Positions 6,429 to 10,790 of a stretch of DNA of 19,162 nt are shown here, one piece after another (positions within the stretch are counted from its first letter, which is position 1; each line of letters starts with the position of its first letter). Position numbers and translations under genes: made by a program. The stretch comes from Escherichia coli (lineage in GTDB: Bacteria; Pseudomonadota; Gammaproteobacteria; Enterobacterales; Enterobacteriaceae). The stretch lies in assembly GCF_003334255.1 (NCBI RefSeq), contig NZ_QOWU01000072.1. One strand, given 5' to 3'. The notes under the pieces were generated by a model. The model made no database searches. It was given only the letters and a program-made list of their open reading frames with translations, and was not told where the DNA came from.

Positions 6429-7469
6429 TTACTCAGCAATAAACTGATATTCCGTCAGGCTGGAATACTCTTCGCCAGGACGCAGGAAGCAGTCCGGTTG
6501 CGGCCATTCAGGGTGGTTCGGGCTGTCCGGTAGAAACTCGCTTTCCAGAGCCAGCCCTTGCCAGTCGGCGTAAGGTTCGGTTCCCCGCGACGGTGTGCCG
6601 CCGAGGAAGTTGCCGGAGTAGAATTGCAGAGCCGGAGCGGTGGTGTAGACCTTCAGCTGCAATTTTTCATCTGCTGACCAGACATGCGCCGCCACTTTCT
6701 TGCCATCGCCTTTGGCCTGTAACAAGAATGCGTGATCGTAACCTTTCACTTTGCGCTGATCGTCGTCGGCAAGAAACTCACTGGCGATGATTTTGGCGCT
6801 GCGGAAATCAAAAGACGTTCCGGCGACAGATTTCAGGCCGTCGTGCGGAATGCCGCCTTCATCAACCGGCAGATATTCGTCCGCCAGAATCTGCAACTTG
6901 TGATTGCGCACGTCAGACTGCTCGCCGTCAAGATTGAAATAGACGTGATTAGTCATATTCACCGGGCAAGGTTTATCAACTGTGGCGCGATAAGTAATGG
7001 AGATACGGTTATCGTCGGTCAGACGATATTGCACCGTCGCGCCGAGATTACCCGGGAAGCCCTGATCACCATCATCTGAACTCAGGGCAAACAGCACCTG
7101 ACGATCGTTCTGGTTCACAATCTGCCAGCGACGTTTGTCGAACCCTTCCGGCCCGCCGTGCAGCTGGTTAACGCCCTGACTTGGCGAAAGCGTCACGGTT
7201 TCACCGTCAAAGGTATAACGGCTATTGGCGATACGGTTGGCATAACGACCAATAGAGGCCCCCAGAAACGCGGCCTGATCCTGATAGCATTCCGGGCTGG
7301 CACAGCCGAGCAGCGCCTCGCGGACGCTGCCATCGGAAAGCGGAATACGGGCGGAAAGTAAAGTCGCACCCCAGTCCATCAGCGTGACTACCATCCCTGC
7401 GTTGTTACGCAAAGTTAACAGTCGGTACGGCTGACCATCGGGTGCCAGTGCGGGAGTTTCGTTCAGCAC
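6429..7469 (-). CDS. galM: Galactose mutarotase (aldose 1-epimerase)
   Basis: 346-aa [41 protein letters not shown]..., matches E. coli GalM. Confidence 0.96.
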
Positions 7470-8611
7470 TGTCCTGCTCCTTGTGATGGTTTACAAACGT
7501 AAAAAGTCTCTTTAATACCTGTTTTTGCTTCATATTGTTCAGCGACAGCTTGCTGTACGGCAGGCACCAGCTCTTCCGGGATCAGCGCGACGATACAGCC
7601 GCCAAATCCGCCGCCGGTCATGCGTACGCCACCTTTGTCGCCAATCACAGCTTTGACGATTTCTACCAGAGTGTCAATTTGCGGCACGGTGATTTCGAAA
7701 TCATCGCGCATAGAGGCATGAGACTCCGCCATCAACTCGCCCATACGTTTCAGGTCGCCTTGCTCCAGCGCGCTGGCAGCTTCAACGGTGCGGGCGTTTT
7801 CAGTCAGTATATGACGCACGCGTTTTGCCACGATCGGGTCCAGTTCATGCGCAACAGCGTTGAACTCTTCAATGGTGACATCACGCAGGGCTGGCTGCTG
7901 GAAGAAACGCGCACCGGTTTCGCACTGTTCACGACGGGTGTTGTATTCGCTGCCAACCAGGGTACGTTTGAAGTTACTGTTGATGATGACGACAGCCACA
8001 CCTTTGGGCATGGAAACTGCTTTGGTCCCCAGTGAGCGGCAATCGATCAGCAAGGCATGATCTTTCTTGCCGAGCGCGGAAATTAGCTGATCCATGATCC
8101 CGCAGTTACAGCCTACAAACTGGTTTTCTGCTTCCTGACCGTTAAGCGCGATTTGTGCGCCGTCCAGCGGCAGATGATAAAGCTGCTGCAATACGGTTCC
8201 GACCGCGACTTCCAGTGAAGCGGAAGAACTTAACCCGGCACCCTGCGGCACATTGCCGCTGATCACCATGTCCACGCCGCCGAAGCTGTTGTTACGCAGT
8301 TGCAGATGTTTCACCACGCCACGAACGTAGTTAGCCCATTGATAGTTTTCATGTGCGACAATGGGCGCATCGAGGGAAAACTCGTCGAGCTGATTTTCAT
8401 AATCGGCTGCCATCACGCGAACTTTACGGTCATCGCGTGGTGCACAACTGATCACGGTTTGATAATCAATCGCGCAGGGCAGAACGAAACCGTCGTTGTA
8501 GTCGGTGTGTTCACCAATCAAATTCACGCGGCCAGGCGCCTGAATGGTGTGAGTGGCAGGGTAGCCAAATGCGTTGGCAAACAGAGATTGTGTTTTTTCT
8601 TTCAGACTCAT
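7463..8611 (-). CDS. galK: Galactokinase
   Basis: 382-aa [52 protein letters not shown]..., with GHMP-kinase motifs; its 3' end overlaps the galM start by 7 nt. Confidence 0.97.
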
Positions 8612-8614
8612 TTC

Positions 8615-9661
8615 TTACACTCCGGATTCGCGAAAATGGATATCGCTGACTGCGCGCAAACGCTCTGCTGCCTGTTCTGCGGTCAGGTCTCGCTGGGTCT
8701 CTGCCAGCATTTCATAACCAACCATAAATTTACGTACGGTGGCGGAGCGCAGCAGAGGCGGATAAAAGTGCGCGTGCAGCTGCCAGTGTTGATTCTCTTC
8801 GCCATTAAATGGCGCGCCGTGCCAGCCCATAGAGTAGGGGAAGGAGCACTGGAAGAGGTTGTCATAACGACTGGTCAGCTTTTTCAACGCCAGCGCCAGA
8901 TCGCTGCGCTGGGCGTCGGTCAAATCGGTGATCCGTAAAACGTGGGCTTTGGGCAGCAGTAGCGTTTCGAACGGCCAGGCAGCCCAGTAAGGCACGACGG
9001 CTAACCAGTGTTCGGTTTCGACAACGGTACGGCTACCGTCTGCCAGCTCGCGCTGAACATAATCCACCAGCATTGGTGATTTCTGTTCGGCAAAATATTC
9101 TTTTTGCAGGCGGTCTTCGCGCTCAGCTTCGTTAGGCAGGAAGCTATTTGCCCAAATCTGACCGTGCGGATGCGGGTTAGAGCAGCCCATCGCCGCGCCT
9201 TTGTTTTCAAAAACCTGCACCCATGGGTACGTTTTCCCCAGTTCTGCGGTTTGCTCCTGCCAGGTTTTGACGATTTCCGTCAATGCTGCAACGCTGAGCT
9301 CTGGCAGCGTTTTACTGTGATCCGGTGAAAAGCAGATCACCCGGCTGGTGCCGCGCGCGCTCTGGCAACGCATCAGCGGATCGTGACTTTCTGGCGCATC
9401 TGGCGTGTCAGACATCAAAGCCGCAAAGTCATTAGTGAAAACGTAAGTCCCGGTGTAATCGGGGTTTTTATCGCCTGTCACCCGCACATTACCTGCGCAG
9501 AGGAAGCAATCTGGATCGTGCGCAGGTAACACCTGTTTGGCTGGCGTTTCCTGCGCCCCCTGCCAGGGGCGCTTAGCGCGGTGCGGTGAAACCAGAATCC
9601 ATTGCCCGGTGAGCGGGTTGTAGCGGCGATGTGGATGATCAACGGGATTAAATTGCGTCAT
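8615..9661 (-). CDS. galT: Galactose-1-phosphate uridylyltransferase
   Basis: 348-aa [38 protein letters not shown]..., with the HPHGQ active-site motif. Its TAA stop sits 3 nt upstream of the galK ATG, inside the galK Shine-Dalgarno (GGAGTG). Confidence 0.97.
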
Positions 9662-9670
9662 GGTCGTTCC

Positions 9671-10687
9671 TTAATCGGGATATCCCTGTGGATGGCGTGA
9701 CTGCCAGTGCCAGGTGTCCTGCGCCATTTCATCGAGTGTGCGCGTTACGCGCCAGTTCAGTTCACGGTCGGCTTTGCTGGCGTCCGCCCAGTAGGCCGGA
9801 AGGTCGCCCTCGCGACGCGGTGCAAAATGATAATTAACCGGTTTGCCGCAGGCTTTGCTGAAGGCATTAACCACGTCCAGCACGCTGTTGCCTACGCCAG
9901 CGCCGAGGTTGTAGATGTGTACGCCTGGCTTGTTCGCCAGTTTTTCCATCGCCACGACGTGACCGTCCGCCAGATCCATTACGTGGATGTAATCGCGTAC
10001 GCCAGTACCATCTTCGGTCGGATAATCGTTACCAAAAATCGCCAGCGAGTCGCGACGGCCTACAGCAACCTGGGCGATGTATGGCATCAGGTTATTCGGA
10101 ATGCCTTGCGGATCTTCGCCCATATCGCCCGACGGATGCGCGCCAACCGGGTTGAAGTAGCGCAGCAGGGCAATGCTCCAGTCCGGCTGGGCTTTTTGCA
10201 GATCGGTGAGGATCTGTTCCACCATCAGCTTGCTTTTGCCGTAAGGGCTTTGCGGTGTGCCGGTCGGGAAGCTTTCAACGTATGGAATTTTGGGCTGATC
10301 GCCATAAACGGTGGCGGAGGAGCTAAAAATAAAGTTTTTGACGTTAGCGGCGCGCATGGCGCTAATCAGGCGCAGAGTGCCGTTGACATTGTTGTCGTAA
10401 TATTCCAGCGGTTTTTGTACCGATTCGCCCACGGCTTTCAGCCCGGCGAAGTGGATCACGGTGTCGATAGCGTGATCGTGCAGGATCTCGGTCATCAACG
10501 CTTCGTTACGAATATCGCCTTCAACAAACGTTGGATGTTTGCCGCCTAAACGCTCGATAACAGGCAGTACGCTGCGCTTACTGTTACAGAGGTTATCAAG
10601 AATGATGACATCATGACCGTTTTGCAGTAATTGCACACAGGTATGACTTCCAATGTAACCGCTACCACCGGTAACCAGAACTCTCAT
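9671..10687 (-). CDS. galE: UDP-glucose 4-epimerase
   Basis: Track ORF 9671..10729 (352 aa). I take the start at the internal Met (MRVLVTGGSGYIGSHTCVQLL..., 338 aa), which has a GGAG Shine-Dalgarno upstream and the NAD-binding GxxGxxG motif; matches E. coli GalE. Confidence 0.96.
   Translation of the reverse strand: MRVLVTGGSGYIGSHTCVQLLQNGHDVIILDNLCNSKRSVLPVIERLGGKHPTFVEGDIRNEALMTEILHDHAIDTVIHFAGLKAVGESVQKPLEYYDNNVNGTLRLISAMRAANVKNFIFSSSATVYGDQPKIPYVESFPTGTPQSPYGKSKLMVEQILTDLQKAQPDWSIALLRYFNPVGAHPSGDMGEDPQGIPNNLMPYIAQVAVGRRDSLAIFGNDYPTEDGTGVRDYIHVMDLADGHVVAMEKLANKPGVHIYNLGAGVGNSVLDVVNAFSKACGKPVNYHFAPRREGDLPAYWADASKADRELNWRVTRTLDEMAQDTWHWQSRHPQGYPD
10653..10668 (-). promoter_or_regulatory. 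gal internal operator OI (GalR/GalS site) within the galE coding region
   Basis: Plus-strand atgtaaccgctaccac is the reverse complement of GTGGTAGCGGTTACAT, the known OI sequence near the 5' end of galE. Confidence 0.8.
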
Positions 10688-10790
10688 AATTCGCTCCATT
10701 AGGCTTATGGTATGAAATAACCATAGCATAACAAAGATGCGAAAAGTGTGACATGGAATAAATTAGTGGAATCGTTTACACAAGAATTTA
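10688..10790 (-). promoter_or_regulatory. gal operon control region: overlapping P1/P2 promoters, CRP site and external operator OE
   Basis: The minus strand reads ...GTGTAAACGATTCCAC (OE, 10766-10781) ... TTTATTCCATGTCACACTTT (CRP site, about 10744-10765) ... TATGCTATGGTTATTTCATACCAT (P2 and P1 -10 elements, 10719-10730), as in the classical gal regulatory region. Confidence 0.85.

Follow-up and report, generated by a model that had tools for sequence, protein, structure and literature searches.

The galETKM operon and its control region in an Escherichia coli chromosomal window match those of K-12 MG1655

A galactose operon in a newly read stretch of E. coli DNA raises a simple question: is it the native chromosomal operon in its known form, or has it been altered, duplicated or moved? 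The stretch analysed here (the window) comprises 19,162 nucleotides of contig NZ_QOWU01000072.1 from assembly GCF_003334255.1. An earlier note, made from the letters alone, had proposed an intact galETKM operon with a complete looping control region. We compared the window base by base with K-12 MG1655, examined its genes, control elements and RNA structures, and searched for the locus in complete E. coli genomes. The operon is almost certainly the unaltered chromosomal galETKM (Leloir pathway) operon of E. coli and, judged by its sequence, is ordinary and already known, the textbook form of K-12.

Chromosomal position and integrity of the genes

By base-by-base comparison and K-12 annotation, the window is a piece of E. 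coli chromosome that extends from lysZ to ybhD in the gene order of K-12 MG1655, and its counterpart there is the colinear interval 781369-800453. Up to position 19085 the two sequences differ at two single bases, both outside the gal genes and the control region. There is no mismatch at all over positions 1-10910, and 6406-10800, which runs from the galM terminator through the control region, is likewise without a difference. The immediate neighbours of gal are those of K-12, with gpmA downstream and modF upstream. Searching complete E. coli genomes with the 4.7-kb gal region gave a match in all 5426 (covering 80% or more of the query in 5388), annotated as galM, galK, galT, galE and modF, and the 161-bp control region was found in 5390 of the 5426, at an identity of at least 99% in 4946 records.

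The whole unit occupies about 6406-10781 on the minus strand, galM and terminator included, and consists of four co-oriented, uninterrupted, full-length ORFs, each of which passes the curated NCBIfam cut-off over its full length. galE (10687-9671, with its true ATG at 10687 and a Shine-Dalgarno GGAG at 10697-10694) encodes the 338-aa UDP-glucose 4-epimerase, as annotated in K-12, and scores 499.8 bits against TIGR01179 (cut-off 262). galT (9661-8615) encodes galactose-1-phosphate uridylyltransferase (348 aa; TIGR00209, 713 bits, above its cut-off), and galK (8611-7463) encodes galactokinase (382 aa; NF003472, 729.9 bits, cut-off 499). galM (7469-6429) encodes galactose-1-epimerase, or mutarotase (346 aa; TIGR02636, 497.4 bits, cut-off 397.65); it begins with GTG, at the same start as in the K-12 annotation, behind the Shine-Dalgarno AAGGAG at 7482-7477. 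A search of the four genes for frameshifts, stop codons and insertions found none. The earlier note was thus right that all four genes are full length, but the span that it gave for galETKM, 7463-10790, holds only galE, galT, galK and the promoter, leaving galM (6429-7469) and the terminator (6406-6422) outside.

An antisense frame of 280 codons lies opposite galE (9707-10549), in the codon-aligned antisense frame, where codon bias yields such long open frames. The first difference from MG1655 near the operon is at 10911, in the modF-galE intergenic hairpin 130 bp upstream of OE, the external operator; here the window has C, an allele common to many other E. coli strains, and MG1655 has T. With the C, this hairpin, which stands between modF and the gal promoters, gains one G-C pair, and if that mattered it might alter the insulation of gal from modF transcription relative to MG1655. 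That either the antisense frame is expressed or this base change affects insulation is, taking the two together, highly improbable.

Operators, CRP site and promoters

Reading the control region directly, we found the external GalR/GalS operator OE (GTGTAAACGATTCCAC) at 10781-10766 and the internal GalR operator OI (GTGGTAGCGGTTACAT), which lies inside galE, at 10668-10653, both on the minus strand and both identical to K-12; these are the very coordinates that the earlier note had given. Their centres, at 10773.5 and 10660.5, are 113 bp apart, agreeing with its expectation of about 113 bp. The start site of promoter P1 was placed at 10713, because the galE ATG at 10687 is +27, which puts the P2 start site (10718) at -5, OE at -60.5 and OI at +53.5. 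The 22-mer of the activating cAMP-CRP site (TAATTTATTCCATGTCACACTT, 10744..10765, minus strand) has a 16-bp core at 10762-10747 centred on 10754.5, or -41.5. Between the CRP site and the start sites lie the overlapping extended -10 elements (TGTTATGCTATGGT, 10733-10720, minus strand), in which the P2 hexamer TATGCT (10730-10725, preceded by TGT) and the P1 hexamer TATGGT (10725-10720, preceded by TGC) share one base, each has a TG in front of it, and the promoters stand 5 bp apart. The published map of the gal control region places OE at -60.5, OI at +53.5, CRP at -41.5, P2 at -5 and the ATG at +27 (PMC4693257), and the window's positions equal it exactly, bearing out the claim that the CRP site and the overlapping P1 and P2 elements are present. 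That P1 belongs to the extended -10 class is known (PMC3488240).

Could these operator- and promoter-like sequences be chance matches in an AT-rich upstream region? Taken as a bare motif, the CRP core lends some weight to that reading, since it has three mismatches to the consensus and is not separable from chance (the window contains 57 such matches, where 68 would be expected); its identity rests instead on being the same as the characterised K-12 site and on its published position. A generic sigma-70 promoter scan of the window also missed both P1 and P2, an uninformative result that was to be expected because the two promoters have no -35 element and rely on the extended -10. The operators, however, behave quite differently from chance matches: a degenerate operator pattern found the two 16-bp sites as its sole matches in the 19-kb window, where 0.06 would be expected, and the count of two was never reached in 200 shuffles. 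The double extended -10 string occurs just once in the window, the spacing of the operators and their distance from the galE ATG are those of the published map, and the region is nearly invariant over 5390 genomes. The chance reading, to which we would give next to no credence, is already refuted.

Somewhat less remote is the concern that the strain has the operon in a functionally altered form, as a cryptic Gal- allele or regulatory variant due to a point mutation or to insertion of a mobile element. Such alleles exist, among them the classical cases of IS elements inserted in the gal control region. In K-12 RV308 the control-region query matched in one piece over no more than its bases 70-161, and the record has two places, which is consistent with an insertion there; the control region went undetected in 34 of the 5426 genomes. 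The strain studied here carries an active IS1, one end of which begins at 19086. This IS1 end lies within ybhD, however, 8.3 kb from the gal control region, and a search of OE, OI, the CRP site and the -10 region for base changes relative to K-12 found none. The earlier note had named operators differing at positions critical for GalR binding as the finding that would tell against it, and in the alignment to K-12 gal no operator position differs. With the ORFs all full length as well, an altered operon is refuted at the level of sequence, and we consider it very unlikely; only a defect in a trans-acting factor encoded outside the window could make such a strain Gal- or constitutive. Still less probable is that this is a second copy of the gal cluster, mobile or carried by a plasmid, and not the native locus. 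Three of 5435 matched places were on plasmids, some genomes had two places, and the window itself ends in IS1, but eighteen kb of sequence flanking gal on both sides is colinear with the K-12 chromosome (the tRNA-Lys genes, nadA, pnuC, zitB, aroG and gpmA on one side, and modFE, modABC, ybhA, pgl and ybhD on the other). As for the ybhD::IS1 junction, 14 records among the complete genomes cover at least 80% of the query; the 12 best of these 14 all matched in two joined pieces with no contiguous junction, and in the one record examined, strain 14EC001, the IS1 is 49 bp away.

The preferred reading, that of the unaltered native operon, makes the gal locus an anchor that places the window at about 17 min of the E. 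coli chromosome (about 781.4-800.5 kb in K-12). As the earlier note had anticipated, the locus is well described and serves to place the window, and colinearity with MG1655 shows it and its neighbours to be unrearranged; no new biology is implied. The region can also serve as a fully characterised positive control for the detection of operators, promoters and sRNA targets.

Gene junctions, RNA structures and the Spot 42 target

The junctions between the four genes are tight. galE and galT are separated by 9 nt, and the galE stop shares its final base with the galT Shine-Dalgarno AGGA (9671-9668); the published description likewise has a junction of nine nucleotides and puts AGGA 6 nt before the AUG (PMC9239205). 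Between the galT stop TAA (8617-8615) and the galK ATG (8611-8609) there are 3 nt, as had been noted before. The accompanying claim that this stop lies inside the galK Shine-Dalgarno needs correcting: the GGAG (8623-8620) ends 2 nt before the stop, and the stop itself falls within the spacer that separates Shine-Dalgarno and AUG, an arrangement described identically in PMC8577784, and it is the galE stop that overlaps a Shine-Dalgarno, that of galT. The reported 7-nt overlap of galK and galM was found as GTGCTGA, which opens with the galM start at 7469 and closes with the galK stop at 7463.

Folding placed the E-hairpin (GCGCCCCU-GGCA-GGGGGCGC) inside galT at 9553..9572 on the minus strand (+1142 to +1161), directly upstream of the published 3′ ends of galE mRNA (+1166 to +1172) and the Rho-dependent termination site (+1183). 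The published structure has seven G-C pairs, one G-U pair and a 4-nt loop (PMC9239205), and the fold of the window sequence agrees with it. An intrinsic terminator found by the terminator scan (GCCCTC-GTCAT-GAGGGC followed by TTTAT, 6422-6406, minus strand) begins 7 nt past the galM stop, and its hairpin folds at -11.7 kcal/mol (z = -3.5). The scan returned eight terminator-like sites against 5.4 expected; only the one after galM was accepted, and those inside the genes were rejected. An Rfam scan found no RNA family inside the operon, as expected because neither Spot 42 targets nor operators are Rfam families.

The galT-galK junction had also been proposed as the target region of the Spot 42 sRNA. 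When nucleotides 1-62 of Spot 42, which are unstructured, were compared with the whole 4314-nt gal mRNA, the best duplex fell at this junction (-44.7 kcal/mol, z = -5.4), in a region that is unstructured when folded alone. The predicted pairing region, at about 8555-8631 on the minus strand, spans the galK Shine-Dalgarno, the galT stop and the galK AUG, and the published Spot 42-paired bases G+2107 and C+2158 (PMC8577784) correspond to G8607 and C8556. With full-length Spot 42, the top duplexes fell at 9588-9509 in galT and 7623-7549 in galK. These we rejected as artefacts, because that search ignores intramolecular structure and the GC-rich terminator stem of Spot 42 itself pairs with GC-rich hairpins of the mRNA, such as the E-hairpin; rerunning it with the unstructured nucleotides moved the optimum to the junction. 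The Spot 42 gene spf is itself outside the window, about 3.3 Mb away in K-12.

Expected regulation and comparison with known systems

In the following account, protein binding, looping and regulation are taken from the K-12 literature, and sequence identity, gene integrity, cis positions and Spot 42 complementarity from the window. Transcription would start at P1 (10713) and P2 (10718), extended -10 promoters separated by five bp. From its site at -41.5, cAMP-CRP would activate P1 and repress P2, and GalR at OE (-60.5) would repress P1 and stimulate P2. The dimers of GalR bound at OE and OI would contact each other and, with HU at the loop apex, form a 113-bp loop closing both promoters; D-galactose would release GalR. 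The four cistrons would be translated across their junctions of 9 nt, 3 nt and a 7-nt overlap. At the galT-galK junction Spot 42 would lower GalK and GalM relative to GalE and GalT, by the routes of translation inhibition, Rho-dependent termination and RNase E cleavage, and transcription would stop at the intrinsic terminator past galM.

The earlier expectation that looping should be intact holds for its cis half: by their match to K-12, the elements needed for GalR/HU looping are complete. The other half depends on GalR, GalS, HU, CRP and Spot 42, which are encoded elsewhere. Because the window contains no galR, galS, hupA/B, crp or spf, the regulation of the operon can only be inferred for this strain, and GalR binding, HU at the loop apex and looping are likewise expected here from the identity of this DNA to the K-12 DNA of the published experiments.

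The closest known system is thus galETKM of K-12 MG1655 (b0759-b0756) with its OE/OI-GalR-HU repressosome. The two have the same sequence from the terminator through OE, the same gene order and junctions, and the same operator, CRP and promoter positions, Spot 42 target, E-hairpin and flanking genes, with no difference inside the operon. A more distant relative is the lac operon with its operators O1, O2 and O3, whose repressor, LacI, belongs to the same LacI/GalR family as GalR. Repression in both lac and gal involves a DNA loop that joins an operator within the first structural gene to another lying upstream. The operator sequences of gal differ from those of lac, however, and so do the repressors: LacI forms a stable tetramer, whereas the GalR dimer requires HU and supercoiling if it is to close its short, 113-bp loop with two promoters.

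Identity of the gal region to K-12 and the ends of the window

Every one of 5426 complete E. coli genomes was matched by megablast when we queried them with window positions 6300–11000 (5388 with at least 80% query coverage in one place), and identity reached 100% in many records; the matches carry the annotations galM, galK, galT, galE and modF. We also aligned K-12 MG1655 780500–800500 to the window at a fixed offset and compared each base, which showed the two to be colinear from lysZ to ybhD, the sole departures being substitutions at 10911 and 19069 and full divergence from 19086 on. 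Because the differences are confined to these positions, the gal operon and its control region (6406–10800) are identical to K-12 MG1655 throughout, operators included, as in the alignment that the earlier note had proposed as a check.

At 10911 the window has C where MG1655 has T (plus strand). This position lies within a GC-rich hairpin in the modF–galE intergenic region, 130 bp upstream of the external GalR operator OE, and the window allele, which is common to many non-K-12 strains matching 6300–11000 at 100%, gives the stem one more G–C pair (the 101-nt segment folds with a minimum free energy of −34.5 versus −31.0 kcal/mol). The substitution at 19069 in ybhD (T in the window, C in MG1655, plus strand) lies 17 bp from an IS1 junction: the divergent tail opens with GGTGATGCTGCCAACTTACTGAT, the IS1 terminal inverted repeat, and the last 77 bases (19086–19162) are an IS1 end that adjoins the minus-strand ybhD and removes its 5′ part. 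MG1655 lacks IS1 at this ybhD position, whereas strain 14EC001 has one placed 49 bp further along. The best 12 complete-genome records listed for a ybhD::IS1 query matched only as two joined pieces, with no contiguous junction, and IS1 may insert recurrently in this region.

At the other end, the window opens exactly on the start of a tRNA-Lys gene (lysZ in K-12), which exists in several nearly identical copies. With repeats on both sides, tRNA-Lys (1–76) on the left and IS1 on the right, the window appears to be a whole contig of a short-read assembly rather than an arbitrary slice. Two tRNA genes, lysZ (1–73) and lysQ (209–281) in K-12, are interleaved with Rfam matches to the RtT repeat family (8–175 and 315–440), an arrangement across 1–440 that is typical of the lysT–valT tRNA cluster spacers.

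Operon extent and control region

All four minus-strand genes are full length, as claimed previously: the ORFs of galE (9671–10729, with the true ATG start at 10687 giving 338 amino acids), galT (8615–9661), galK (7463–8611) and galM (6429–7469, from the same GUG start as in the K-12 annotation) are whole, and the NCBIfam models for GalE, GalT, GalK and GalM matched the four proteins end to end, far over curated cut-offs. The span previously assigned to the four genes, 7463–10790, needs correction, since it starts at the galK end and therefore excludes galM and the hairpin that follows it on the minus strand (GCCCTC-GTCAT-GAGGGC then TTTAT, 6422–6406), which, by terminator scan, folding and sequence, is the only convincing intrinsic terminator. 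The complete unit occupies about 6406–10781. Antisense to galE, a 280-codon plus-strand ORF with a GTG start (9707–10549) lies in the codon-aligned antisense frame, in which a stop would have to stand opposite one of the rare sense codons TTA, CTA and TCA; this putative ORF is most likely a codon-bias artefact.

Upstream of galE the minus strand reads ...cttGTGTAAACGATTCCACtaatttattccatgtcacacttttcgcatctttgtTATGCTATGGTtatttcAtaccataagcctaatGGAGcgaattATG..., and direct reading placed OE at 10781–10766 (centre −60.5) and the internal operator OI, GTGGTAGCGGTTACAT, at 10668–10653 (centre +53.5), exactly where the earlier note had put them. The galE ATG is located at +27 (review, PMC4693257), which sets the P1 start at 10713 and that of P2 (−5) at 10718. 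The operators are 113 bp apart centre to centre, the spacing the note had asked to be checked, and the CRP site is centred at 10754.5 (−41.5); OE, OI, spacing and CRP site all equal the published values (PMC4693257). The −10 hexamers of P2 (TATGCT, 10730–10725) and P1 (TATGGT, 10725–10720), each with a TG one base upstream, overlap by one base.

OE and OI are the sole matches in 19 kb to a degenerate operator pattern allowing one mismatch (0.06 expected), a count reached in none of 200 shuffles, and the double −10 string occurs once in the window. As a bare motif the CRP site was not significant, with 3 mismatches and 57 such matches in the window versus 68 expected; the assignment is based on its identity to the characterised K-12 site. 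P1 and P2 were undetected in a generic promoter scan of the window, the expected outcome because they have no −35 element. The 161-bp control region was found in 5390 of the 5426 E. coli genomes (at least 99% identity in 4946 records) and was undetectable in 34. In K-12 RV308 (NZ_LM995446.1) the query matches in one piece only from query base 70, in two places, a pattern consistent with an insertion at the equivalent of window position ~10709, shortly after the P1 start; this split provides a contrast case for a disrupted gal control region.

Gene junctions, Spot 42 and the E-hairpin

The galE stop (TAA, 9673–9671) and galT ATG (9661) are separated by 9 nt, and the galT Shine-Dalgarno sequence AGGA (9671–9668) shares the last base of the stop, the same anatomy as in PMC9239205. 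At the galT–galK junction (...CCGGAGUGUAAGAAAUG...) the 3-nt gap between stop (UAA, 8617–8615) and start (AUG, 8611–8609) was seen as described; the stop, however, is not inside the galK Shine-Dalgarno sequence, as had been claimed, but in the spacer two nucleotides downstream of GGAG (8623–8620), in agreement with PMC8577784. The 7-nt galK–galM overlap (...AAGGAGCAGGACAGUGCUGA...) runs from the galM GUG at 7469 to the end of the galK UGA at 7463.

The galT–galK junction had also been named as the target of the sRNA Spot 42. We searched for duplexes between the K-12 spf sequence and the 4314-nt gal mRNA; with full-length Spot 42, the top sites were artefacts that arose from the GC-rich stem of its terminator. 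When the scan was repeated with unstructured Spot 42 nucleotides 1–62, the strongest duplex anywhere along the mRNA was at 8631–8572 (−44.7 kcal/mol, z = −5.4), reaching ~8555 once the Spot 42 5′ end may pair. Two bases published as paired, G+2107 and C+2158 (PMC8577784), correspond to window G8607 and C8556, and folding of the target region gave no stable self-structure. The duplex optimum, the mapped pairs and the unstructured target together support the assignment.

The E-hairpin involved in galE mRNA 3′-end formation, published as seven G–C pairs, one G–U pair and a 4-nt loop (PMC9239205), was recovered by folding on the minus strand at 9572–9553 (+1142 to +1161), within galT and just upstream of the published galE mRNA 3′ ends at +1166 to +1172 (PMC9239205). 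It is strongly complementary to the Spot 42 terminator stem, and this duplex (−50.7 kcal/mol) dominated the naive prediction; because both partners are stably self-paired, we took it to be a computational artefact.

Predicted regulation and comparison with K-12

By analogy with K-12, cAMP–CRP at −41.5 would activate P1 and repress P2, GalR bound at OE would stimulate P2 and repress P1, and GalR at both OE and OI, with HU, would close a 113-bp loop and so shut off both promoters until galactose relieves the repression (PMC4693257). Translation of successive cistrons would be coupled through the close junctions. Spot 42 pairing or failed downstream initiation would expose the mRNA to Rho and RNase E, yielding sub-operonic galE and galET mRNAs (PMC8577784, PMC9239205). 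The claim that looping is intact holds for the DNA sites, which are identical to K-12, but does not extend beyond them, the trans factors being encoded outside the window.

The operon is already known, and is useful as an anchor for the window and as evidence of no rearrangement between the tRNA-Lys cluster and ybhD. Compared with the K-12 gal operon it is that operon itself rather than a relative, with all of the defining features that can be read from sequence.
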